Shown here in pieces: positions 938 to 26,050 of a DNA stretch of 32,704 nucleotides. The stretch lies in assembly GCA_964399335.1 (NCBI GenBank), contig CAYNQI010000006.1:1-32704 (forward strand), given 5' to 3'. The translations under genes and the position numbers were made by a program. The notes below the pieces were generated by a model, which searched no databases, had not been told where the DNA came from, and saw nothing but the letters and a program-made list of their open reading frames with translations. The stretch comes from an uncultured Thermoplasmata archaeon. Its GTDB lineage: Archaea; Thermoplasmatota; Thermoplasmata; Halarchaeoplasmatales; Halarchaeoplasmataceae. Position 1 is the stretch's first letter. Each line of letters starts with the position of its first letter.

Positions 938-1010
<73 letters not shown>

Positions 1011-3725: not shown

Positions 3726-3798
3726 AGCCCCGTATTGTAGCGGTCAATCATACGGGCCTTTGGAGCCTGTGACCCCGGTTCAAATCCGGGCGGGGCTA
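3726..3798 (+). tRNA. tRNA-Gln (anticodon UUG), archaeal type with A1:U72
   Basis: AGCCCCG acceptor pairs with CGGGGCU. T arm CCCGG-UUCAAAU-CCGGG. Anticodon stem CGGGC/GCCUG and loop C-U-UUG-G-A. The 5' end closely resembles known archaeal tRNA-Gln (AGCCCCGU...). Confidence 0.8.
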
Positions 3799-12261: not shown

Positions 12262-12690
12262 TTGACTAATATGACCTCAACTGAATTAGAAACAATACAA
12301 AATGAGTATGCAGAAAAGGAGTACAAGGTCAAGATAATCTGCCCTGAATTCACCTGCTTATGCCCGGAAAAAAGGGATCAACCTGATTTTGCAACTATAA
12401 CGATAACATATATCCCAAGAGATCTCCTCATAGAATTGAAGTCATTAAAGTATTATCTTGTAGATTATAGAAACGTTGAAATTTTCCATGAAGAGGCTAC
12501 GAACAAGATATTGAACGACCTTGTAAACGTACTAAACCCGCGTTATATGAGGGTGCAGGGTGATTGGAATATTAGAGGTGGGATCACCACTATTGTCGAA
12601 ACTGATTTTAGAGCAGATGATTGGAACGGGGAACCTGCAGATGTAAAAATAGAGGATACAAAAACAGCATCTAAGAGGAAAACTTGGTGA
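12262..12690 (+). CDS. queF: NADPH-dependent 7-cyano-7-deazaguanine (preQ0) reductase QueF, unimodular YkvM type
   Basis: CPEFTCLCP...QPDFATI...YIP and the E(S/L)K(S/A)LK(Y/L)Y NADPH motif (ELKSLKYYL). Collinear with B. subtilis YkvM. Confidence 0.85.
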   Translation: MTNMTSTELETIQNEYAEKEYKVKIICPEFTCLCPEKRDQPDFATITITYIPRDLLIELKSLKYYLVDYRNVEIFHEEATNKILNDLVNVLNPRYMRVQGDWNIRGGITTIVETDFRADDWNGEPADVKIEDTKTASKRKTW

Positions 12691-12732: not shown

Positions 12733-13584
12733 CTATCTATGTGTTTCTAGAAATGAATCTAGAGTGGTTCCAGAAGATTCCACATCGGATTCTTCTATCA
12801 CATTTAAGGCTTCGATTACGGGTGGTTTTTCTGCCTTTTGACTCTCCACTTCTCTCTCTGGAACTTGGTTTTCTAAACTAGAAAGGTTTTCGGATATTCC
12901 TATCGCATCTAAACCTATTTCATGGAAGAATTCATTTATGCATTCCATTTTAAGACGCTCTACGACCTTGTAAAGCATCTTCCCAGTCAATTCGAAACCC
13001 TCTTCAGGGCTTTTGTCGCCGTGTAAAAGTGTTTTGTCGTTCTCGAAAACGGTGATCGCATGACTTATCTCTGTCAAATTTTCAAGATATCCTTTGGCTT
13101 TATTATATCTATTTACTTCTGCAGAGAATGGCATCACAGCATAAGAAACTACCATCTTGTCATTTCGCTTAGCTAGATCTGCGATAACAGGCGCGGCTCC
13201 TGATCCAGTACCACCGCCTAGACCAGCTACTATAACCACAAAATCTGCTTCATCCATCGTTTTTAAGATCTGTTCTTCGTTGGTTAGAGCTGCTCTTTTA
13301 CCTATTTTTGGATCACCATTAGCACCATTACCATTTGTCAATTCTTTTCCGATCAACATCTGGCGATCGACATTCAGGTCTCCTAGAATGCTATCATCGG
13401 TGTTGATACCGATGGTTTTCACGTCATTCATATTTCGTTCGTTTATGTACTGTACTGTATTGCATCCACATCCACCTACACCGACAACATACACTTTGCT
13501 TTCGCGAAGCAAACCATTGATGAGTTCTTGTACGGTTCCTTCCATAGTATTTTCTTTTGGGGATTCGGGGCTTTTGTTTTTCAT
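12733..13584 (-). CDS. ftsZ: FtsZ/tubulin-superfamily GTPase, short form (283 aa): N-terminal GTP-binding domain and H7 present, canonical C-terminal domain missing, acidic tail ending in a CTP-like peptide
   Basis: VGVGGCGCN (G1) and GLGGGTGSGAAPVIADLAK (tubulin signature). ENDK and a degenerate T7-like NEFFHEI motif. The protein ends ~45 aa later with ...LDSFLETHR, which resembles the FtsZ DIPAFLR C-terminal peptide. Confidence 0.8.
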   Translation of the reverse strand: MKNKSPESPKENTMEGTVQELINGLLRESKVYVVGVGGCGCNTVQYINERNMNDVKTIGINTDDSILGDLNVDRQMLIGKELTNGNGANGDPKIGKRAALTNEEQILKTMDEADFVVIVAGLGGGTGSGAAPVIADLAKRNDKMVVSYAVMPFSAEVNRYNKAKGYLENLTEISHAITVFENDKTLLHGDKSPEEGFELTGKMLYKVVERLKMECINEFFHEIGLDAIGISENLSSLENQVPEREVESQKAEKPPVIEALNVIEESDVESSGTTLDSFLETHR

Positions 13585-13654
13585 ATACTTGGACTCCTCC
13601 GATATTATCTTGTAGCGCCGTTAAACGCTAATCTGTCCCTTGCCCTAAACTGTT

Positions 13655-14047
13655 TCACTTTTGCATGTATTTTTGCTCACTGGTTTTTTCAACTTCAAGG
13701 ATATTTTCTACTCTGTTGCTCATCTCACCTATGACTTCATATTGTGTCTTCAGTTCTTTGAGATCCTCTGTTAAAATCCCCTTTTGCACAAGCTGTTGGA
13801 TGGCTGTTTCCCAATCGTTAAAATGTCCAACAGCTATGAGATAGTGAACTATATTCTTTATTTTCTTGGGTAAAGTGATCTTAGCTGGTACTTCCCTTTC
13901 ATCTTTGCGGATGCTGTGTCTATTGATGTACTCTAGTGCGGCCTTCCTTAAGAAGGAGGACCGGTTACTGAAATCATGTCTTGCTATAAATGAATCGATG
14001 ATCTCAAGGTCTTCGTCTGACACCCGTAGGGATATTTTCTTTTCCAT
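13655..14047 (-). CDS. Ribbon-helix-helix (CopG/Arc-like) DNA-binding protein directly upstream of and co-oriented with ftsZ (CdrS-like position)
   Basis: The N-terminal ISLRVSDEDLEIIDSFIARHDFSNRSSFLRKAALEYI segment has the beta-alpha-alpha RHH pattern. 130 aa. Confidence 0.55.
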   Translation of the reverse strand: MEKKISLRVSDEDLEIIDSFIARHDFSNRSSFLRKAALEYINRHSIRKDEREVPAKITLPKKIKNIVHYLIAVGHFNDWETAIQQLVQKGILTEDLKELKTQYEVIGEMSNRVENILEVEKTSEQKYMQK

Positions 14048-14251
14048 ACTTTACACACCTTCTGTCCTTTTGATGTAGTACTTGTATTCCGAATGTATAT
14101 ACGGTATTAAGTAGGGCGTAGGACATAATACATATAATATTAAACCTATATAAAGATTTTCATCCCGACGATATGCGTACTAATAGGCGTATTTAACCTA
14201 ATATAGTAATACTATTGTCATACTTATTATCGTTATTCATTTACTGCTTAA

Positions 14252-14260
14252 CTATAAATA
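14252..14260 (+). promoter_or_regulatory. TATA-like box (CTATAAATA) ~40 bp upstream of the rubrerythrin ATG, with GGAG at -12
   Basis: Sequence motif only. Confidence 0.25.
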
Positions 14261-14298
14261 ACAGGATAAATTTCCTTCTACAAGGAGCGTAATATAAT

Positions 14299-14838
14299 AT
14301 GTTAAAAGTATTTAGATGCTGGATATGTGGTGAGACATATTTGGGTGAGGAAAAACCCACTGATTGTCCTTACTGTGGCGCGGACGAAGAGTTTTTGAAA
14401 CCCGGAGAGGAATACGAAGAACCCGATGTTGAATTGACAGAGGTTTCCAAGAAAAACTTAGAGAGTGCACTTGAGCTAGAAGTTGATAACGCTACTTTCT
14501 ATTATTGTGCTTACAATCAGGCTAAAGGACCGAAAACAGAAGGTATGTTCAAGAGGTTGGCAAAAGTCGAAGCTGAGCACGCGGAAGCGATATGCCTGTT
14601 CTTAGACAGGGAAGAACCGGACATCAACAAGAAATCCGATAACTGCTCACATCATCTACCCGACAATTTAGAGGACGCAAACAAGAGAGAAACAAGAGCC
14701 ATCGAACACTATAGGAAGTTCGCTTCCGAAGCCGAGGAACCTCGAGTTAAGGAATTCTTCGAGGCTTTAGTCGAGATAGAGAGCGATCATCTAGAACTGC
14801 ACGAAGGTGAGTTAGCTAAGTTGGAAGACACTCACTAA
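14299..14838 (+). CDS. Reverse-rubrerythrin-like protein (N-terminal rubredoxin-like Cys4 ribbon plus ferritin-like diiron domain)
   Basis: CWICG...CPYCG at the N-terminus, then two E...ExxH pairs (EAEHAEAI, EIESDHLELHE). Confidence 0.7.
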   Translation: MLKVFRCWICGETYLGEEKPTDCPYCGADEEFLKPGEEYEEPDVELTEVSKKNLESALELEVDNATFYYCAYNQAKGPKTEGMFKRLAKVEAEHAEAICLFLDREEPDINKKSDNCSHHLPDNLEDANKRETRAIEHYRKFASEAEEPRVKEFFEALVEIESDHLELHEGELAKLEDTH

Positions 14839-14969: not shown

Positions 14970-15043
14970 GCCACCGTAGCTTAGTTCGGCAGAGCGGCTG
15001 ACTTGTAATCAGCAGGTCGGGGGTTCAAATCCCTCCGGTGGCT
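14970..15043 (+). tRNA. tRNA-Thr (anticodon UGU)
   Basis: Perfect cloverleaf: acceptor GCCACCG/CGGUGGC, D stem GCUU/GAGC, anticodon stem GCUGA/UCAGC with loop C-U-UGU-A-A, and T arm GGGGG-UUCAAAU-CCCUC. Confidence 0.9.
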
Positions 15044-15169: not shown

Positions 15170-15979
15170 CTATTCTAAATATTCACTGATATCATGATGG
15201 AAATCATTATCGATCTTTTCAAATACCATCTTTAACTTTTTGTTCTTTGGTGTACCTTTATTAAACTCTTCAAGATCCCAATTAATATAGGACCAATAAT
15301 CAGAATGTCGAGGTGGTGAAAAGGTCTTTTCCACAACAGCAACATCGAAGAGATTACAGTATTTACCTCTTGGTCGTTTGGTAGTTAAAGAAAGAGGGCG
15401 AAGATTAAACTCGATCACAAAAAGATCTATTAGATAGGCTGATATACTAAATCTTTCAGAAACATCGCTACCCTGACACCGTAGTATGGTCCTATTGTTT
15501 TTATTTTTCAATGATCTATATACTAATGATTTAACTGCAGAAGGAGTAATAAGAGTACTTAAATCACCTTTGTATTTGATACCTTGTCCTTCTTTTTCGG
15601 GAACTTTTAAACGCTCTATATCGCCTTTAGGTTTAGGATTTTCTTCATCGAATAACCTTAAGGATTCTTTGATATCAAAAAGGGAAACTTTGTTTTGTTT
15701 TAAAAGTTCTTTATGTACAACTACAGAATGATGTGTTGCAGCTTCTCTTCCAAGTTCATCCTCAGTAAAACCAAGTCTTGTCATCAATAAAAAAGGGGAT
15801 TTAGATCTGTTAAAAAACATGAAGGCCTCTTTATCCTGATAACCTAAGGATACGGGGATATATTCTTTGAACCATGGTTTGAAGTGTACAGGATTGACTT
15901 TTTCGGTAGCTGCAGAAGCATCTTCTTCATAACCAGCACCTTCAACGGGGAACCAAACGAAATGGTCTAGGGCTATCAT
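15170..15979 (-). CDS. Hypothetical protein (269 aa), first gene 3' of tRNA-Thr
   Basis: Long ORF co-oriented with the GTPase cluster. No recognisable motif. Confidence 0.55.
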   Translation of the reverse strand: MIALDHFVWFPVEGAGYEEDASAATEKVNPVHFKPWFKEYIPVSLGYQDKEAFMFFNRSKSPFLLMTRLGFTEDELGREAATHHSVVVHKELLKQNKVSLFDIKESLRLFDEENPKPKGDIERLKVPEKEGQGIKYKGDLSTLITPSAVKSLVYRSLKNKNNRTILRCQGSDVSERFSISAYLIDLFVIEFNLRPLSLTTKRPRGKYCNLFDVAVVEKTFSPPRHSDYWSYINWDLEEFNKGTPKNKKLKMVFEKIDNDFHHDISEYLE

Positions 15980-15995: not shown

Positions 15996-17012
15996 TTAAA
16001 GCATCTTCCTTCCTTCACGTTTGAAATACTCCTCTAATTTCTCATTCGGATCAGAATAATCTTTACTCAAATCTCCTAAATGAGAGATAAATTTTTGGAA
16101 GTGTTTATATGGATATATATTCGATGTAAGTTCCTCATCTTCTACATTAACCCATTTCACACCGAGTTCTTGGTCTGCTGGTTTTACTCCGTTTTCACCA
16201 TCTACACCTGCCCAGCTGAAGAAGTACATTGCTTTATGTAGGTCAACACCTACAACTTTAGAACCTACTATGTTTTGATAAAGACCGGGAAGAAATGTTT
16301 TCAAAAGTTTCTCTCCATCTTCCCTTACTTCAACCTCATCATATCCTTTTTGTATATCTAATAGATCCCTCATACTATGGTTGGGGAACATATCGATTAT
16401 TTCTGGATCCATCATGTCCATTTTAGTGAAGAAAACTATCGGGTGTAATTCTTCAGATGTTTTATTAGCTTTATACTCCTCATAGCGTGATAAAATTTGA
16501 GACATCTCAGCATCATACCTTCGCATTGTAGTGCCTTTTTCACTCCTGATATCCTTTGTTAATTTAGAGCAATCAACTAGAATAACCATTATATTGCTGT
16601 TGAAAACTTCTTTGATCTTTTTTGTAACAGATTTATGATTACCAAATTCTTCGATCTCCTCACCTGACACATCGAATACAGTGAACATCAATTTATTCTC
16701 ATAATTAAATGCATTTTTAAGTCCACTTAAACCCTTTTCTGCTTTAATATGTTTAAAAACATCACTTTTTGTTGCCTCAAAATTCATCAAAAAACTCAAA
16801 GCTTGAAAATCTCCTCTAGCAGTTGCCCTTGGAAATTCACCAGCATGTAATCTATTTCGTATTTTATTGAGACAAACATCAGTCGTTTCAGGATCCATAT
16901 AATAAGCGAATTTTTTAGGATTCTTGATCGTATATTTTTCCATCGATTGATGTAAAAACCCAACTAACGTTGATTTTCCACAACCTCTGGTTCCTATTAT
17001 AGATACAGGCAT
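15996..17012 (-). CDS. P-loop GTPase-like protein (338 aa)
   Basis: N-terminal Walker A GTRGCGKST, a hhhhDxxG motif (FTVFDVSGEE), a Walker-B-like IMVILVDCS, and a TKMD G4-like motif (FFTKMD, compare NKxD/HKxD). Confidence 0.7.
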   Translation of the reverse strand: MPVSIIGTRGCGKSTLVGFLHQSMEKYTIKNPKKFAYYMDPETTDVCLNKIRNRLHAGEFPRATARGDFQALSFLMNFEATKSDVFKHIKAEKGLSGLKNAFNYENKLMFTVFDVSGEEIEEFGNHKSVTKKIKEVFNSNIMVILVDCSKLTKDIRSEKGTTMRRYDAEMSQILSRYEEYKANKTSEELHPIVFFTKMDMMDPEIIDMFPNHSMRDLLDIQKGYDEVEVREDGEKLLKTFLPGLYQNIVGSKVVGVDLHKAMYFFSWAGVDGENGVKPADQELGVKWVNVEDEELTSNIYPYKHFQKFISHLGDLSKDYSDPNEKLEEYFKREGRKML

Positions 17013-17081
17013 TTTCGTTCACCGAGCTGTAAACGTATTTTAATTATATATCATTTATGGTTATATCTCCATCAGAAAAGA

Positions 17082-17960
17082 TTATTTCCGAATCTCAGAA
17101 AGTATTTCTTTCTGAGTTTTTGATGTTTTTATTTTATTACCGATATAAGATATCATATCTATATATTGAAAATAGGGATAGATCAATACGTTTGGGTGAA
17201 GATCAAAAGGTTCAAATCCATCGGGTTTAGGATGTATTCTATGATGTTTATTGCTGACTATGGTATAGGTACTAAAAAAATAATTTGCCCCCGCCGTATT
17301 TTTTTTATTTATCAAATTCCAAGTTTTTGGAAGATTATTCTTCATTAAGATCATACCGGCCTTTCTTTTAACCTCTTCTTGGGAATCCTCTTTAGTAAAT
17401 ATTTTAAATATCAACTTTTTACCTTTATCTATTGGTAGATTTAAGACTATGAACATATAATTTTTAGAATTGGATCTTTGCTTAAAATATTCATTTAGTA
17501 ATATTGAAAGGTTTTTATCATAAAAACTATCAACCTTTGTAATATCTATAATAACCCCTAGTATCTCATCTTCTACGATCCTATCAAATCTTTCTGGTAA
17601 ACCGATTTTACCGAAATCATGCTGGCCAAAATTTATAATTCTAATCGAGGTTCTCTTCATGTCGTTATCTTTTGATTTATCTTTTTTTAATGCACTTCCT
17701 AAGTTTCTCATAAATTTATTTAACCCATTATACGGAAACCCAGCAATTAAACAGATTTCATCACCTTTGCTTAATCTTCTTTTAGTTTTAGAACCTAATC
17801 TATTCTCTTTTATGTGAAGTAATCTGAGGCTTTTAGAAGGTATATAAAAAGAGAAACCACTATTCTCATCTCTTACACTATATCTCTCCATAGATTTATG
17901 TAGGAGAACAGAAAACTCGTCGAACATTTTTTTCCTTAATGTGATTATAGACACGCCCAT
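17082..17960 (-). CDS. Degenerate paralogue of the upstream GTPase (pseudo-GTPase, P-loop lost)
   Basis: The N-terminus MGVSIITLRKKMFDEFSVLLHKSMERY aligns with MPVSIIGTRGCGKSTLVGFLHQSMEKY of the neighbour, but GKST is replaced. The later segments VIIDITKV and FIVLNLPID are also collinear. Confidence 0.6.
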   Translation of the reverse strand: MGVSIITLRKKMFDEFSVLLHKSMERYSVRDENSGFSFYIPSKSLRLLHIKENRLGSKTKRRLSKGDEICLIAGFPYNGLNKFMRNLGSALKKDKSKDNDMKRTSIRIINFGQHDFGKIGLPERFDRIVEDEILGVIIDITKVDSFYDKNLSILLNEYFKQRSNSKNYMFIVLNLPIDKGKKLIFKIFTKEDSQEEVKRKAGMILMKNNLPKTWNLINKKNTAGANYFFSTYTIVSNKHHRIHPKPDGFEPFDLHPNVLIYPYFQYIDMISYIGNKIKTSKTQKEILSEIRK

Positions 17961-17974
17961 AATATCATCTTTTT

Positions 17975-19480
17975 CTAAATAGTATAAATATCTCGTTCAT
18001 CTTTCTCTTCGACTTCAACCCTTTCCCCTATTTCTCCGAATAATTTATCTTTGTATTCTTTAAAGAACATATGAGGATGAGTACTCTTAGATATTCCTAC
18101 TTTCTCTTCTTCTAGTAAAATCCCGATTCCATAAAGACAGCCCAATATTGGAGAAGATGTGTGGATCTTTAGGACCTTAAAGTCTCCATTTGTATCAAGA
18201 TTGTTAAAATATTTTGCCTCCTCTATCTCCGAGAAGTTTTTGTTCCAATACTCCATATAATAAATAAAATTCTTTCTCCATTCAGGATCCGTCTGGAGGT
18301 AATCTACGATATCGTCTTCAAGACTTTGATCGTATTTAATTTCGTTCCGTATCTTTGTAAATAACTTTTTATTCCTTCTATTTTCTTTTATTATCTTAGC
18401 CCAGCCATCCTTTGAATCGAGTTCAAAAGTAGTATCTTTTTCCGCTTTATCTTCCATTACCTTTTCATCTGTATTTGAAGATTCCTCAGTTGATAAATTT
18501 TCAAAAGTTTGAACTTCTTGTTTCGGTCTTTTTTCCATAATGACCTGGTTTTCTTCTAATTCTTCTATCATATCTCTAAGCTCGTCTACAGAATTAGGAT
18601 CGTTTAGACGATGTTCAATCTCCACTGTATCTAACGTTCGACCTTGATATTCTAATAATGAATATTTTTTTCTGAGAAATATTAATTCTTTAATGTTTTC
18701 CTCGTATTCACTAAATAATTCTTCACCTTTATCAAGATCATCTTTAAGTGTATTGATTAATTTGTCTACCTGAAAACCTTCATCTCTCCAGTCTTTTGCT
18801 TTCATTAAAAGTTTCTTTTTCTTTTTCCTCCTTTTAATCTCCTTTTTAAGCTTTCTAACGATTCTTGAGGCCTTCTCTACCGAATCTGGATCGTTCAAGT
18901 ATTCTTCAATATTATCACTAAAAGCCATGTTGTATTTATCAAGAGGTAAAGATTGATATCTTTTTTTTACAATTTTTAATCTTTCAATTCTCTTATTATA
19001 TTCATCGATAAGGTCCTCACCTTTAGAGGGATTATTTTTTATCTTAGCTTTTAATCCAGAAACATCCCACCCTTCTTCTTCTAACTCTTTTAATTTGCTA
19101 AATAATTTCTTTAATCTCTTTTTTTTATCGATCTTCATTTTTAGTTTGTTGACTATCCTCGAGGCTTTTTTTACCGAATCAGGGTCATTCAGATATTCTT
19201 CGATATTTTCACTAAAAGCCAAATCGAATTCATTCAATTTTAAAGAATTATATCTCTTTTTAATAATCTTTAATCTTTTAATCCTTTTCTTATATTCCCT
19301 TATAAAGTCCTCACCTTTAGAAGGGTCATCCTCTATCTTATTTTTTAAACCAGAAACATCCCAACCATCGTTTTCCCAGTCTTTAATTATATCCAATAGT
19401 TTATTTATAGATTCTTCTCTTTTTCTTTCCTTTTCTCTATCCTCGGATATCTTATCTATGATTGGTTTTTTTTCTGACAT
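17975..19480 (-). CDS. Basic/acidic coiled-coil protein with three tandem ~85-aa repeats (EGWDVSGLK.KI...PSKGE..I.EY..RI.RLKI.KKRY.SL.L....AFS.NIEEYLNDPDSV.KASRIV.KLK)
   Basis: The repeats are visible at both protein and DNA level (~18.57-19.39 kb). No known domain recognised. Confidence 0.65.
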   Translation of the reverse strand: MSEKKPIIDKISEDREKERKREESINKLLDIIKDWENDGWDVSGLKNKIEDDPSKGEDFIREYKKRIKRLKIIKKRYNSLKLNEFDLAFSENIEEYLNDPDSVKKASRIVNKLKMKIDKKKRLKKLFSKLKELEEEGWDVSGLKAKIKNNPSKGEDLIDEYNKRIERLKIVKKRYQSLPLDKYNMAFSDNIEEYLNDPDSVEKASRIVRKLKKEIKRRKKKKKLLMKAKDWRDEGFQVDKLINTLKDDLDKGEELFSEYEENIKELIFLRKKYSLLEYQGRTLDTVEIEHRLNDPNSVDELRDMIEELEENQVIMEKRPKQEVQTFENLSTEESSNTDEKVMEDKAEKDTTFELDSKDGWAKIIKENRRNKKLFTKIRNEIKYDQSLEDDIVDYLQTDPEWRKNFIYYMEYWNKNFSEIEEAKYFNNLDTNGDFKVLKIHTSSPILGCLYGIGILLEEEKVGISKSTHPHMFFKEYKDKLFGEIGERVEVEEKDERDIYTI

Positions 19481-19646: not shown

Positions 19647-20984
19647 ATGGCTAAAAGATGGAGAGATATAAAAAACGATAGTGATGACGTAGTTGCTAGG
19701 TTTTTAGAGCCAAATGACGTAAAAGGTATTACGAGTCAAGATATTATAATAGGTCCTAACGAAGCCGCTGTTATAATCGAACAAGGTAAAATAGAAGACG
19801 TTATTACTCAATCTAAACAAAAGAATTTTGGGACCAGTTTGTTAAAGCGTTTTGAAAATATAATTTTTGGATCTAAAGATTCGAGAATGCTATTTGTTGA
19901 TACGAGTCCTATTGATGTGACCGGGAAAATCAATAATATAGCAACAAAGGACAACGTTAGGCAGGATGGAATCTGTATGTTAAGATTCCAACTAGATGTT
20001 AACAACGCACATAAATTATTAAATCTGATTAAAAATAAAGACAAACTTACGATCAACAATATACGGGAAAAGATAAGCGATGAGATTACAGCCAATGTGT
20101 TTTCACCTTATATACACAAATATAACGTTGACGAATTTAAAGGGAATACTGATGTACAGGATGACATCGAAGAAGCAGCAATGGTAGAGATGAGAAAAAC
20201 TTTCGATATGTGGGGTTTGAATTTAATAAATCTTTCAACGAAATGGCATATCAGTAAACACGAGAAAGTTGAAAGGCAAGTTAAAGATGCTGAATTGGAT
20301 GAGAGAAAAAAGGATATAAGAACTGAAAAAGCTAAAGGGAAGATAAATAGGGAATACGATGTAAAATCCCATCTAGAACAAGAGCAGTATAACCAAAGAG
20401 ATCAACATATGGAACATAAACAGGATTTGGAATGGAAAAACATTAAATTTGAAAGAGATAAGCAAAAAACAGGAGTTGACCATCAAGAAGAGATCAAAAC
20501 TAGAAAGAAAAAAGGAGAGATCACTAGAGAAGAGATGGAATGGGAGATGGACAAAAAAGAGATGGAAAGAGCCTTGGACTGGAAGGATCGAATGAATAAA
20601 CAGAAAATGGAAAAAGAAGAACATGAAACAAAATTGGAGATAAATAAGTTTCAAGAAACTGAGTTAAAGGAGAAAGAAGTGGAAGCGGACGTTAAAAAAA
20701 CAAAAGCTCAGGTAGAGGCTGAGAAAGCAAAGCATAATTTAGAAACATATAAAGAAGCCGAAGACAGAGAAAGAAAACATCAATTAAACATGACTGGTCA
20801 GATGGCAAATTTGATGAATGCATCTAAACAGGATATGCCTAATACACTCGTTCAGGGAACTGATAAGACATCTACGAACATCCAAGACAATCAAAACCCT
20901 GGAAAAAAAGATTCGTGCCCAAATTGTGGATCAAATGTAGATAAAAATTGGCAGCATTGTCCAGACTGTGGAGAAGAAATATAG
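19647..20984 (+). CDS. Flotillin-like protein: SPFH/band-7 domain, long E/K-rich coiled coil, C-terminal Cys4 zinc ribbon
   Basis: SPFH-like N-terminal ~200 aa (IIIGPNEAAVIIEQGKI..., ATKDNVRQDGICMLRFQL, WGLNLINLS). Residues ~200-400 are a charged heptad-rich segment. Ends CPNCG...CPDCG. Confidence 0.65.
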   Translation: MAKRWRDIKNDSDDVVARFLEPNDVKGITSQDIIIGPNEAAVIIEQGKIEDVITQSKQKNFGTSLLKRFENIIFGSKDSRMLFVDTSPIDVTGKINNIATKDNVRQDGICMLRFQLDVNNAHKLLNLIKNKDKLTINNIREKISDEITANVFSPYIHKYNVDEFKGNTDVQDDIEEAAMVEMRKTFDMWGLNLINLSTKWHISKHEKVERQVKDAELDERKKDIRTEKAKGKINREYDVKSHLEQEQYNQRDQHMEHKQDLEWKNIKFERDKQKTGVDHQEEIKTRKKKGEITREEMEWEMDKKEMERALDWKDRMNKQKMEKEEHETKLEINKFQETELKEKEVEADVKKTKAQVEAEKAKHNLETYKEAEDRERKHQLNMTGQMANLMNASKQDMPNTLVQGTDKTSTNIQDNQNPGKKDSCPNCGSNVDKNWQHCPDCGEEI

Positions 20985-22979: not shown

Positions 22980-24176
22980 TTATTCAAATATCCTCCTTAC
23001 CTCTTCCATCTTATACCCACATTCTACACAGCATTTCCATTCACTTTCTACTTTTGTTCCGCAACTTGGACAATATCTTACTCCCCCATCGATCTTCTCG
23101 CCCGTAAAAACACTATAATTTCTAGGGACTTTTAGATTTTTTTCTGCTACCTGTCTAATTATAGAATCATCTATTTTCTTTTTGCCATTACCTATATCAG
23201 ACCTAACAGCAACAGAATTATCCAATTGTGTACTGCCACTTTCTCCTGAACCTCCAATATTAGACCTTAAAGCTACTGAATCTTTAAGTTGGGTAGCCCC
23301 TTCCCCCAATTTTTCTTTCACTTTATCTCCTTTGACCAGATCTCCGTTTACCTTATCACCTTGTATCTGTTCTCCTATCTCTACCTTTGTCTCTCTAAAA
23401 TGGACAGCATCAACCCGTCTATAGTTGGTATTTTTCTGTGCCTTACCTTTTAGAATGTACGTCAATGGTATAGACAGGTTCATGATCTCTTTCCAGTCGT
23501 TAGATGAATCCACTTGATTTATGGTCCATTCGATACATGATCTGATAGGTTCCTCATCATATCCTTCACCTATCAAAAGCAAACTTTCTAAAGCTAAAGC
23601 TGTGACTTTTTCTTTATTTATCCACCCCCTCTCTGTTCGTTCCTTTTTATAATGGTCTTTTTTGATAGAGTTCTTTAAGAAATCAGCTGTTAATGATAAT
23701 TGAGCAGGTTCTGCATAAGAATAAAATAAAGCTTGTAATGCGTAAGAACTCACCCAAACTTTTTCGTACCAGCTTCCATTAGGATACCTTTTCTGTAACA
23801 ATACATCTGCAATATTAGGATAGCTGATACCATACTTACCCAGTGCTTTTATTATCAAAGAATCCAGCCATATCTGGTTTGTCCACCCATTTCTTTTTTT
23901 TTCCTTTTCCAGTATTTTGATATAGTTTTTCATATCGCTCTCAGTATAACCAAGTTCTTTTGCAGATAATAGAAAGTATGAGATCGAGATAGTATCCATA
24001 TCTAACATGAATTTAGCTTCCGTCTTTTTTAATAATTCTTCAGCTATCTCTTCTTCGATACAAGATAAAAGCCGTATACCTGAACTTATGTACCTAATAT
24101 CATTAGATTCGTAAAGGCATGATAAATCAAATGTATTAAAATTCCTCTCTAAGCAATTTACAACTTCTTTTTTCAT
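22980..24176 (-). CDS. Alpha/alpha-toroid (prenyltransferase/terpene-cyclase-like) repeat protein with a G/S-rich duplicated linker and a C-terminal Cys4 zinc ribbon
   Basis: Repeats of the form NGW....D..II.AL..YG, NGSW....VSSYALQALFY and RGW....ALALESLLLIG. Duplicated TQL(K/D).SVA(L/V)RS(N/D)IG segment. Ends CPSCG...CVECG. Confidence 0.55.
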   Translation of the reverse strand: MKKEVVNCLERNFNTFDLSCLYESNDIRYISSGIRLLSCIEEEIAEELLKKTEAKFMLDMDTISISYFLLSAKELGYTESDMKNYIKILEKEKKRNGWTNQIWLDSLIIKALGKYGISYPNIADVLLQKRYPNGSWYEKVWVSSYALQALFYSYAEPAQLSLTADFLKNSIKKDHYKKERTERGWINKEKVTALALESLLLIGEGYDEEPIRSCIEWTINQVDSSNDWKEIMNLSIPLTYILKGKAQKNTNYRRVDAVHFRETKVEIGEQIQGDKVNGDLVKGDKVKEKLGEGATQLKDSVALRSNIGGSGESGSTQLDNSVAVRSDIGNGKKKIDDSIIRQVAEKNLKVPRNYSVFTGEKIDGGVRYCPSCGTKVESEWKCCVECGYKMEEVRRIFE

Positions 24177-26050
24177 TTAACAGCCTCCTCCGATAGAGCT
24201 TTTAGATTTAAAGATAATTTCATAATATCTCTTTTCCTAGACCCAACCTGATTACTTAATTCTCTTTTCAACCATTGAACTACATTATCATTTTTATATC
24301 CTATGCTATTTAAGCAATCATATATGATTGCGGTGGCCTTCACGTTATCGGTTTGTTTACATTCCCAATGGTTTTCTTTCAATAAAATTTTCAGTTGACT
24401 CAATTCTTTACTTGCATCTAAACCAGATATAATTAAACACTCAACAATATATGCTATCACCCATGAGGGAGTAAATTCACTTATCCTATTACGGAGCTTT
24501 TCAGCGAGTTCCTTTTTTTCCAATTCCTCTCCACCCAATTTACTCATAACAGAAAGTGCATAAGCAGATATCCAAAGTTGTTCATCCTCTAATATACCAC
24601 CTCTTAGTTGATCCATAACTTTCTTGGCATTTTGTCTATATATTTCTCTTTCTGTTTCTTCATAGATGAATAAGGTTTCTAATAATAGAAGTGTATGGTA
24701 AAATTTAGACCCAGAATATTTTTTCAAAAGAGTATTTACCAATTCTTCACATCTTATTTTTTCCATCGTTGGATTACATTTCATTAAAGCTAACAACGAA
24801 TTGGCATACTCTTTATAACTTATCGTATAAGATTGCTGGATTGCTTTTTCTAACATTTCATAGGCTTCTTTAATATCCTCATCCCATTCAATCTCTTTTC
24901 TTACTTCTTCTTTTTCAACAAATTTAAATTTAATTTTACTTTCTGGAAGTGGTTTTTTCTCATAATCTTCCATAGTAGCCCCGAAAAGTTCTGATACGTA
25001 TTGATCCTTTTTCTTTGAGAAAAGATGTATCTGCCAATCAGCTAGGTTTCTCTTATGTTTTAAAAATCTTTTCAAAGGTTTGATCTGTTTTTCGTATCCC
25101 ATTTCCTTGATCTCGGGTTTTAACCAGTCAAAAAATGCTTTTATAACCTCTATAGTAGAAGAGTCTGATACATTTTTATAATGAAAGCACCTTTTCATAT
25201 CTCTCTTTATAAAGAAACTAGAAGACATACCATTTTTAATAGCTTTGTTTCTGTTATGACCTATATTTATATTTGGTACCCATTTGACTTTATCCAATTT
25301 TACAGTTAACGTTCGAAACAAAGCTGCATAAGCTACTGTAAGAGGGATATATGGATGGGTATCTAATAAACGTATTTCCAAAGTTGGTTTATATTCATCT
25401 GAGGCCTTACATTTTTGGGTAAAGGGAGATAGGTCGTAATACCTGCTTTTTTTCCTTTTTTCCTCATAAGAGTTTTCATATTCAAAACAAGAAAGATACC
25501 CTCTTTTAATATCTTCTTCGTTAAGGTATGGTGCAGGTTTTATGTTTGGATTTACCCTTTTTGAAGGATCATAAGTATCCATACTGGCCCTAACAGACTT
25601 CCATTTCGTGATATGATTGTCATGGATCGGTGAATTAGAACTTAAAGCAAATATTTCTGGAACAAAGATTCTGAGAAAATTATTGAGTCTCAATTTTCTC
25701 TTATCAGAATTTGCATCGATATGATGCTGTTCTGCAAAATATTCTCCAACTCTACCCTTAGTATGAGGGTTCGCAGCTGTTCCAATTAAGAATAGGTCAC
25801 ACTCACGGGCTGCTTCGTTTACAACTTCTCTCAGTTCTATCAGTTGTTCCTCAAGTTCTTCTAAAGTTTCACAGGTATCAGTAGCTATTTCCAGTTGGGA
25901 CTGGTATTTATCTTTATATATACCACCTTTTCCAAATTCATAATATTTATCTGGTACTTTATCTAATATCTTTGGGACTTCGTAAACCAGGTGCCCATTT
26001 TCATTTACTACTTGTATTTCCTGCTCAACACCGTGTTTCAAATCTATCAC
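24173..26050 (-). CDS. GCS2/YbdK-type carboxylate-amine ligase fused to C-terminal alpha/alpha-toroid repeats (625 aa)
   Basis: N-terminal ~370 aa carry the glutamate-cysteine-ligase-family-2 pattern (HGVEQEIQVV..., EIATDTCETLEE..., FLIGTAANPHT). The C-terminal ~250 aa carry repeats such as QLWISAYALSVMSKLGG. A 4-nt ATGA overlap joins it to the downstream gene. Confidence 0.6.
   Translation of the reverse strand: MIDLKHGVEQEIQVVNENGHLVYEVPKILDKVPDKYYEFGKGGIYKDKYQSQLEIATDTCETLEELEEQLIELREVVNEAARECDLFLIGTAANPHTKGRVGEYFAEQHHIDANSDKRKLRLNNFLRIFVPEIFALSSNSPIHDNHITKWKSVRASMDTYDPSKRVNPNIKPAPYLNEEDIKRGYLSCFEYENSYEEKRKKSRYYDLSPFTQKCKASDEYKPTLEIRLLDTHPYIPLTVAYAALFRTLTVKLDKVKWVPNINIGHNRNKAIKNGMSSSFFIKRDMKRCFHYKNVSDSSTIEVIKAFFDWLKPEIKEMGYEKQIKPLKRFLKHKRNLADWQIHLFSKKKDQYVSELFGATMEDYEKKPLPESKIKFKFVEKEEVRKEIEWDEDIKEAYEMLEKAIQQSYTISYKEYANSLLALMKCNPTMEKIRCEELVNTLLKKYSGSKFYHTLLLLETLFIYEETEREIYRQNAKKVMDQLRGGILEDEQLWISAYALSVMSKLGGEELEKKELAEKLRNRISEFTPSWVIAYIVECLIISGLDASKELSQLKILLKENHWECKQTDNVKATAIIYDCLNSIGYKNDNVVQWLKRELSNQVGSRKRDIMKLSLNLKALSEEAVK

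Follow-up and report, generated by a model that had tools for sequence, protein, structure and literature searches.

The window analysed here, a 32,704-nt stretch of archaeal chromosomal DNA, carries on its minus strand two adjacent genes: one for a 130-aa tandem ribbon-helix-helix (RHH) protein (13655..14047) and, directly downstream and co-oriented, one for a 283-aa FtsZ homologue (12733..13584, stop codon included) that retains the GTP-binding domain of FtsZ, lacks its C-terminal domain, and is called mini-FtsZ below. Both open reading frames had been reported at these coordinates in a preliminary description of the sequence and are confirmed, the first by an RHH_1 match and by CdrS as its top NCBIfam match, the second by domain matches, by homologues in 59 protein clusters (P0001-P0059) and by the ratio of nonsynonymous to synonymous substitution rates (dN/dS). 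The pair appears to form a two-gene operon conserved in the class Thermoplasmata, regulator first and mini-FtsZ second. We tentatively read it as an autoregulated operon whose product, a one-sided GTP-binding FtsZ subunit, would cap or modulate canonical FtsZ filaments; this role, argued by analogy with bacterial FtsZ, strikes us as plausible, if somewhat short of probable.

Architecture and conservation of mini-FtsZ

Residues 31-184 of mini-FtsZ (13033..13494, minus strand) match the Tubulin/FtsZ GTPase family PF00091 (E 1e-38) and include the loops T1 GVGGCGCN, T2 NTD, T3 GANGDP, T4 GGGTGSG (residues 123-129), T5 PFSAEVNR and T6 ND. The core helix H7 follows at residues 193-222 (12919..13008, minus strand), as placed by predicted secondary structure and by alignment against the canonical segment 'PSLINLDFADV', and the GTP-binding N-domain and H7 are thus intact, as the preliminary description had held. 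Its further claim that the C-terminal domain is missing also stands. A Pfam search finds no FtsZ_C (PF12327) match in the 283-aa protein, of the 353 positions in the NCBIfam ftsZ model TIGR00065 only 17-201 align with it (166.5 bits, where the cut-off is 295.2), and the family profile aligns in a PDB profile search to residues 18-222 only of M. jannaschii FtsZ. In an AlphaFold model built on 39 homologues, the predicted local distance difference test (pLDDT) score is mostly above 90 at approximately residues 30-180 and H7 again spans 193-222, while the chain past H7 consists of low-confidence helices and disorder (pLDDT <50) with no folded domain. Foldseek superposes ~185 columns of this model on FtsZ crystal structures at 1.3 A, corresponding to the N-domain and H7 only.

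H7 of mini-FtsZ runs about two turns longer ('INEFFHEIG') where canonical FtsZ begins its T7 loop, and the C-terminal domain is replaced by an acidic tail of 61 residues (223-283; 12736..12918, minus strand). The tail holds a degenerate T7 remnant, G224-L-D226, and two motifs on the same strand: PPVIEAL at residues 254-260 (12805..12825; family consensus PPV[L/I]EAL, with A259 conserved in at least 90% of sequences) and LDSFLE at residues 275-280 (12745..12762; family consensus LD[S/D]FLExY, with L279 conserved in at least 90%). The preliminary description had likened the end of the tail to the bacterial FtsZ peptide DIPAFLR; it resembles instead the half of the M. smithii FtsZ peptide that reads 'LDDFI', a likeness of six residues that could be chance. 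The near-invariant GID core of archaeal C-terminal peptides (LGIDFVE or LGIDVIR) is absent from it.

A search of 5.8 billion proteins recovers the family as 59 clusters of 270-295 aa, 50-100% identical and matching PF00091 only, with bit scores that fall sharply from 273 to 140 where full-length FtsZs begin. Ca. Saliniplasma, Ca. Natronoplasma and unclassified Thermoplasmatota metagenome-assembled genomes (MAGs) account for the named members, and NCBI annotates members as 'hypothetical protein'. Of the GTDB species genomes, 35 carry the gene, and almost all of these are labelled Thermoplasmata or Thermoplasmatota. Several are explicitly halo(alkali)philic, among them Ca. Halarchaeoplasma halalkaliphilum and Ca. 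Saliniplasma halalkaliphilum, the latter encoding the closest GTDB relative of the window protein (85%). A library clustered at 50% identity reduces the whole family to one representative. One 176.5-kb contig labelled Candidatus Aenigmatarchaeota (L017, JBKHKA010000002.1) carries the full syntenic RHH, mini-FtsZ, QueF and carbamate-kinase block of hypersaline Thermoplasmata, and its taxonomic label is probably wrong. Guaymas Basin sediment, Methanomassiliicoccales MAGs, Ca. Methanomassiliicoccus intestinalis and other Thermoplasmata supply more distant short FtsZs (33-38% identity), which have motifs similar to the first tail motif (P-x-x-[E/P]-[L/I]-x-A).

The family alignment keeps the N-tail (SPExP), all nucleotide loops, the H7 extension 'EFFxEIG', the acidic linker and both tail motifs, with LD[S/D]FLExY standing immediately before the stop codon. 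Pairwise dN/dS is 0.09-0.18 for the mini-FtsZ gene and 0.03-0.05 for the RHH gene; the mini-FtsZ tail is under weaker constraint than the core, yet its proportion of nonsynonymous differences remains below that of synonymous ones (pN < pS). A tblastn search with four FtsZ C-domains, in every frame of 477 kb around 46 mini-FtsZ genes, finds no C-domain coding sequence, whereas a positive control locus is recovered at E 1e-26 to 1e-99. This bears out the preliminary statement that no alternative frame encodes the missing domain, extends it to nearby genes, and rules out both locations. Because of the family-wide constraint and this blank search, we reject an artefact, a pseudogene and a local gene split; the reduced FtsZ paralogue without a canonical T7 loop that had been suggested for the window is genuine and family-wide.

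We next consider individual residues in an alignment of 78 sequences, comprising 39 members of the halophile family, 22 distant short FtsZs, 16 full-length archaeal FtsZs and S. aureus FtsZ. For the last we used what we take to be the reference sequence; its numbering, adopted here, agrees with that of Ruiz et al. at all seven residues that they name. Pocket residues are invariant in 39/39 halophile and 22/22 distant short FtsZs: G20, G21 and N25 in T1, N44, T45 and D46 in T2, G70 in T3, G104 and G107-G110 in T4, P135, F136 and E139 in T5, and N166 in T6. R143 is found in 39/39 and 21/22, respectively. The T7 residues N208, D210 and D213, which are N, D and D in 16/16 canonical sequences, map to E222, G224 and D226 of mini-FtsZ. 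The first is replaced by Glu in 34/39 and the second by Gly in 38/39 halophile members, and the distant short FtsZs are variable there, so that the T7 loop is indeed degenerate, as first described, in having lost the Asn and the catalytic first Asp; the last Asp, in contrast, is kept in 31 of the 39. Both short groups share as a derived feature a helical '[S/E]F[F/I]xxI' in place of 'PSLINLDF'.

The halophile family also has two near-invariant cysteines, C39 and C41, in its T1 phosphate loop (GVGGCGCN; codons within window positions 13467-13472), at positions where other FtsZs have Gly/Ala and Gly/Asn; in the distant short FtsZs the loop has CGGAG. The two cysteines might have a redox or metal-related function.

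The RHH partner, its putative operators and the spacer

The RHH protein matches RHH_1 at residues 5-43 (22.3 bits against a cut-off of 20.5). CdrS (NF058555) is its top NCBIfam match at 20.9 bits, as it is for the RHH partners, the distant ones included (18.7-29.7 bits), against a cut-off of 100 bits. The preliminary label 'CdrS-like' therefore holds for the best match but not for the score or the architecture: at 130 aa the protein is about twice the size of CdrS, whose model has 61 positions, and it appears to consist of a first RHH (~4-44), an RHH-like repeat (~55-93) and a long C-terminal helix (96-129). The AlphaFold model has helix pairs at 11-44 and 61-93, followed by the long helix at 96-129. 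Aligning residues 1-50 against 53-100 with hhalign places strand, helix and helix in register (probability 78%, E 1.7e-5), which indicates a tandem RHH. A structure search with the model returned local RHH matches only (NikR, ParD), none of them significant globally.

At 37/37 halophile loci the RHH gene lies directly 5' of the mini-FtsZ gene and co-oriented with it, the RHH proteins being 54-96% identical. This alone proves little, because QueF and carbamate kinase are likewise syntenic at these loci. The link is robust because the distant short FtsZs keep the same partner despite different flanks: an RHH gene stands upstream wherever upstream sequence is present, in several MAGs with adjacent NCBI locus tags or accessions, and besides it no conserved neighbour is common to halophile and distant loci. 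The partners of both groups are homologous over their full length (118-135 aa). Of the cdrS-ftsZ2 arrangement that the preliminary description had recognised, the conserved, co-oriented RHH gene upstream holds. FtsZ2 identity is not demonstrable from the N-domain tree described below. The T6 triplet, DNN in FtsZ2 (Liao et al.), is END in the window protein; some distant short FtsZs have DNN.

The RHH gene shares a 251-nt intergenic region (14048-14298) with a divergent rubrerythrin gene (14299-14838, plus strand). In this region, on the minus strand, a GAAAA element (14157-14161) resembling the TFB recognition element (BRE) and a TATA box, TTTATATA (14147-14154), together occupy 14147..14161 and start ~-107 from the RHH start codon; under a strict pattern, TATA is found at -95 to -109 in 26/36 loci. 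Around them lie GTNNNAC boxes. Box 1, GTCCTAC (14118..14124, -77), lies at the expected transcription start, ~30 nt 3' of the TATA start; the exact heptamer recurs in 31/36 loci at -66 to -78 (in one locus at -97), and a GTNNNAC box falls within -80..-66 in 36/36. Box 3, GTACTAC (14075..14081, -34), and the distal box, GTATGAC (14217..14223, -176, 5' of the TATA box), have GTNNNAC counterparts in 33/36 loci each, within -36..-22 and -190..-170, respectively. In total 179 boxes are observed in 36 x 220 nt against ~30 expected, and they cluster at -185, -165, -77, -55 and -35; the modal distance between boxes is 20-22 bp. Boxes of the same type (GTATGAC, GTAGGAC, GTCAGAC/GTCTGAC) precede the RHH genes of distant loci and are found in a canonical-FtsZ operon. 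From this pattern in the sequences, each of these boxes is a candidate operator, and the array is likely the autoregulatory operator of the RHH protein.

The array occupies the region shared with rubrerythrin. Because the distal box sits ~80 nt 5' of the rubrerythrin start, it could also affect the promoter of that gene. The boxes remain at loci where rubrerythrin is not the neighbour (same region compared in L001-L038).

The 70-nt spacer between the RHH and mini-FtsZ genes (13585..13654, minus strand) was compared at 15 loci. It contains a box variant, AGGGACAG (13633-13640), a TAGCG/CGCTA hairpin (13613-13630) that is kept with differing sequences, and a conserved Shine-Dalgarno GGAGG (13596-13600) 11 nt 5' of the mini-FtsZ ATG. 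GTAGGAC, with at most one mismatch, occurs just 3' of the RHH stop codon in 24/36 loci, and no Rfam family covers the RHH-ftsZ spacers. The two genes are likely co-transcribed, because the spacer has the conserved GGAGG, the small hairpin and no consistent TATA box at the 15 loci.

One related Thermoplasmata genome, CP070751.1, encodes both forms of FtsZ. Its short FtsZ (UCE36589.1) adjoins an RHH gene (UCE36590.1), and its full-length 360-aa FtsZ (UCE37376.1) has its own 115-aa RHH gene upstream, whose product matches the CdrS model in two stretches with 52 bits; the presence of both forms favours an accessory role for the short one. Short- and full-length-FtsZ operons share the box type, and in non-halophiles both share a nearly invariant GGGATGGGATG spacer element. 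A neighbour-joining bootstrap tree of N-domains, built without labelled FtsZ2 references, gives the halophile clade 100%, the distant short group 51% and their union 30%, leaving the position of the halophile clade unsupported. A common origin of all short forms is supported not by the tree but by shared architecture, the H7 extension, the full-length-homologous RHH partner and the box type. In the simplest history, a cdrS-like/ftsZ operon would have been duplicated and the C-domain then lost. In the Methanomassiliicoccales MAG JSV56 (3.2-Mb record) there are two different short FtsZ genes, JSV56_03925 and JSV56_08455 (P0287 and P0311), the latter adjoining the RHH gene JSV56_08460; in some lineages, then, the short form has undergone a duplication of its own.

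The element GAAGGGATGGGATGC is nearly invariant in the 130-360 nt RHH-ftsZ spacer of non-halophilic Thermoplasmata, in short- and full-length-FtsZ operons alike (L003:1267-1277, L084:5925-5935, L086:3959-3969, L089:809-819 and L090:4805-4815), and is absent from the short spacer of the window. It also occurs in 17 metagenome loci (e.g. L094, L108, L129, L139, L140, L170 and L181-L183): 17 of 120 exact metagenome matches adjoin an RHH gene and/or an ftsZ homologue, 14 of them lying between both genes, and where ftsZ is present the element stands 50-190 nt 5' of it. A long-range stem around it has compensatory changes (GCCGGAAGG/CCTTCCGGC versus GCCAGGTG/CACCTGGC). Rfam has no counterpart of the element and no small ORF is conserved there; it may act as a structured leader RNA or as a site where a protein binds.

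Among full-length proteins, the best match to mini-FtsZ is P0062 (L213:5251-6465), an acidic protein (404 aa, isoelectric point 4.6) with an FtsZ1-type N-terminus (MDSVIENAF), whose gene lies on a 37% G+C contig and is not preceded by an RHH gene; it could represent FtsZ1 from a hypersaline archaeon. The best non-family matches in the representative library, P0121, P0122, P0123 and P0125 (731-840 aa), contain PF00091 and PF12327 twice each and are either real tandem FtsZ fusions or merged gene calls. As proteins with two complete FtsZ units in tandem, they were set aside as relatives of interest.

Proposed role and rival explanations

In bacterial FtsZ, the GTP-bound top face of a monomer adds to the T7-exposing bottom, which is the growing end of the filament (PMC8936486). 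Bottom-interface mutants are toxic, and MciZ acts by capping the bottom (PMC8936486). Ruiz et al. found that D46A, R143Q, N208L, D210N and D213N each abolish assembly, with D210 positioning the catalytic water (PMC8936486), and the supplement of Liao et al. lists T7 mutants of both FtsZ1 and FtsZ2 from Haloferax volcanii as dominant-inhibitory. We favour a capping role because a conserved top face without a bottom face makes mini-FtsZ the natural equivalent of such bottom-interface mutants. In the proposed mechanism, the RHH protein, a distant relative of the archaeal cell-division regulator CdrS, would most likely repress its own promoter through GTNNNAC boxes ~21-22 bp apart around the TATA box and start. 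Mini-FtsZ would bind GTP and offer its nucleotide ('top') face while having no functional 'bottom' face, and by analogy with bacterial FtsZ it would attach to a full-length FtsZ filament at the growing end and stop its extension. Autoregulation by the RHH protein would set the dose of mini-FtsZ, which would then serve as a built-in capper or as a modulator of filament length or turnover. More speculatively, a partner, perhaps SepF, might be recruited by the tail motifs. In the M. smithii FtsZ peptide, the LDDFI segment that LD[S/D]FLE resembles occupies a conserved SepF groove; the mini-FtsZ tail lacks the GID core, Thermoplasmata differ in SepF content (PMC11188069), and binding of SepF would be no more than a possibility.

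Several points weigh against this proposal. An acidic residue stands at the D213 position in 33/39 halophile and 20/22 distant members, and some T7-like function may therefore persist. In the halophile proteins, constraint has eased at pocket-side positions associated with hydrolysis or with contacts to the base (Q48 to R/S/K, G72 variable, D187 to D/G/S/N), so that GTP turnover may be slow and GTP affinity is uncertain. The polarity argument is taken from bacterial FtsZ, and docking on a filament end is inferred from it. Capping also needs a full-length FtsZ in the same lineage, since otherwise there would be nothing to cap. At the level of regulation, the 36 loci behind the box statistics are orthologues rather than independent samples, and the boxes could act partly at the RNA level, GUCCUAC being complementary to GUAGGAC.

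Alternatively, mini-FtsZ may be a GTP-binding switch or adaptor that works away from filament ends and whose tail or nucleotide state controls a partner, an explanation we think unlikely yet worth keeping in view. The partner could be the RHH protein, with mini-FtsZ as its co-repressor or GTP sensor, or a DNA-bound RHH array serving as a chromosome tether. The latter variant would formally resemble tubC-tubR-tubZ or parC-parR-parM loci, or nucleoid occlusion of the SlmA type. The logic of such partition loci (TubZRC, ParMRC) fits the layout, with a repeat array, a small DNA-binding protein and a tubulin-family GTPase with a flexible conserved tail. The five or more phased boxes, the extra C-terminal helix of the RHH protein, which has no assigned role, and the strict pairing of RHH and short FtsZ over a large evolutionary distance likewise argue for it. 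Conversely, a role as motor or in partition would depend on polymerisation, and the architecture speaks against that; a search of plasmids and IMG/VR viral contigs found no member of the mini-FtsZ family, only generic-FtsZ matches of <=41% identity; and CdrS-ftsZ2 provides the simpler precedent (PMC7439475).

It is also conceivable, though we regard it as improbable, that mini-FtsZ forms filaments through a non-canonical interface, for example one made of the extended H7, the acidic T7 remnant and the tail helices, and that it is possibly the main division protein of a 'minimal divisome'. Retention of D or E at the D213 position in most members and purifying selection on the '[S/E]F[F/I]xxI' extension and the tail motifs speak for this reading. 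Division machinery is variable in Thermoplasmata, some of which have FtsZ without SepF or a PRC barrel and others no FtsZ (PMC11188069). Full-length FtsZ, SepF and ESCRT proteins are not encoded in the window; at only 33 kb, however, the window says nothing about full-length FtsZ elsewhere in the genome, and the related CP070751.1 has one. N208 and D210, each required for assembly of S. aureus FtsZ, are replaced, the entire C-domain half of the bottom interface is missing, and the tail is predicted to be disordered.

An extension that joins capping to the chromosome is a long shot: the RHH protein on its phased GTNNNAC array would recruit mini-FtsZ through the tail motifs, tethering a filament-end-binding module at a fixed chromosomal site. 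If this were true, wall-less Thermoplasmata would have a DNA-anchored regulator of Z-ring assembly made from half an FtsZ, a functional analogue of nucleoid occlusion or of a TubRZC-like centromere complex.

We give hardly any weight to a two-chain FtsZ whose C-terminal domain is supplied in trans from elsewhere in the genome. Oliva and colleagues are said to have found in 2004 that the N- and C-domains of FtsZ fold independently, which speaks for it; against it, the 477 kb around 46 loci are free of C-domain coding sequence, the RHH gene is the only conserved neighbour that halophile and distant loci have in common, and even the T7 loop, which the N-terminal chain would contribute, is degenerate. 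An artefact of assembly or annotation, or the decaying full-length ftsZ with disabling mutations for which the preliminary description had allowed, has the short length alone in its favour and can be dismissed, since 270-295 aa and the same stop region recur in 59 clusters, 35 species genomes and independent assemblies, with purifying selection on core and tail and the C-terminal motif kept at the stop codon.

What defines FtsZ and tubulin proteins is a pair of domains that jointly build a self-activating GTPase filament. If the capping role is correct, mini-FtsZ would be, to our knowledge, the first endogenous one-sided FtsZ subunit, a genetically encoded filament capper or modulator of a kind otherwise obtained by mutagenesis or met as unrelated bacterial inhibitor proteins. 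The literature yielded no description of an N-domain-only archaeal FtsZ or of its tandem-RHH partner. The pairing and its readable operator array would extend the CdrS-FtsZ regulatory theme to another archaeal class. Since the human-gut methanogen Ca. Methanomassiliicoccus intestinalis has a family member (WP_400207237.1), as its culturable relatives probably do, these predictions are directly testable in vitro.

Neighbouring genes and comparison with known systems

The window has a G+C content of ~35% and also encodes GGGP synthase, a tRNA-intron endonuclease, ribosomal protein S8e and HisRS. The gene next to mini-FtsZ does not start 42 bp away, as the preliminary description had it: this is QueF (12262-12690, plus strand), a convergent gene whose 3' end lies 42 bp from the mini-FtsZ stop codon. 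Rfam places tRNA genes at 938-1010 (minus), 3726-3798 (plus) and 14970-15043 (plus), one of which is ~130 nt 3' of the rubrerythrin gene. Three co-oriented genes at 15996-19480 (minus) encode proteins of 338 aa, with a Double-GTPase 2 match (PF19993, 33 bits), 292 aa, without a Pfam match, and 501 aa, with a weak sub-threshold match only; together with a 269-aa orphan (15170-15979) that comes after them, they may form a conflict or defence-type module. An SPFH/Band-7 protein with a C-terminal zinc ribbon is encoded at 19647-20984 (plus). At 22980-26050 (minus), the gene for a 398-aa zinc-ribbon protein overlaps by 4 nt the gene for a 625-aa protein with a region of glutamate-cysteine ligase family 2 (GCS2).

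Canonical archaeal FtsZs (FtsZ1 and FtsZ2, e.g. M. jannaschii FtsZ1, PDB 1FSZ/1W5A) have the N-tail, the GTP-binding domain and H7 in common with mini-FtsZ, at 34-41% identity over ~185-200 residues and with phosphate- and ribose-binding loops all conserved. Mini-FtsZ differs from them in lacking the GTPase-activating C-domain, T7 residues N208 and D210, and the LGID C-terminal motif. It is not a CetZ, as it has the N-tail and no C-domain, and as FtsZ reaches 165 bits in the PDB profile search but the CetZ structures 4b45 and 4b46 only 60 and 56 bits.

FtsZl1 (FtsZ-like 1; Makarova & Koonin 2010, PMC2875224) is another member of the tubulin superfamily without a recognisable FtsZ C-domain, usually present together with a conventional FtsZ. 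It is extremely diverged, with no identifiable T6-H7, a coiled-coil C-terminal part and operons that include a vWA gene (PMC2875224). Mini-FtsZ, in contrast, lies close to FtsZ and retains both T6 and H7, and its 17.9 bits on PF13809 (Tubulin_2) fall short of the cut-off of 27, which rules out this identity; there is no vWA gene in the window or at related loci. Type III partition systems (tubC-tubR-tubZ) are plasmid- or phage-borne and combine a winged-helix TubR with a two-domain, filament-forming TubZ. The present locus is chromosomal and syntenic, its adaptor is an RHH protein and its GTPase has no C-domain, and it was therefore excluded from that class.

Extra FtsZs have been noted in the class Thermoplasmata before: 'two deep-branching FtsZ' in Thermoplasma acidophilum (Liao et al. 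supplement), and six FtsZ-family proteins in Methanomassiliicoccus luminyensis, as counted in Brown & Duggin Table S1, the part of that work drawn on here. These surveys, to that extent, are silent on domain loss and on an RHH partner.

The cdrS-ftsZ2 operon of Halobacteria and other Euryarchaeota, in which an RHH transcription factor is co-transcribed with ftsZ, is similar in that a small RHH gene directly precedes an ftsZ homologue in the same orientation (Darnell et al. 2020, PMC7439475). Here the partner is instead a 130-aa tandem RHH protein with an extra helix, and the downstream gene does not encode a full-length FtsZ2. In its predicted behaviour, mini-FtsZ would be closest to FtsZ mutants altered on the bottom (T7) side and to the cappers MciZ and MipZ, as portrayed in the portions of PMC8936486 and PMC9897490 used for this comparison: the growing end would be occupied and not extended. 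Whereas the T7-side mutants were made in the laboratory and MciZ and MipZ are unrelated bacterial inhibitors, mini-FtsZ is a natural archaeal paralogue, known from sequence.

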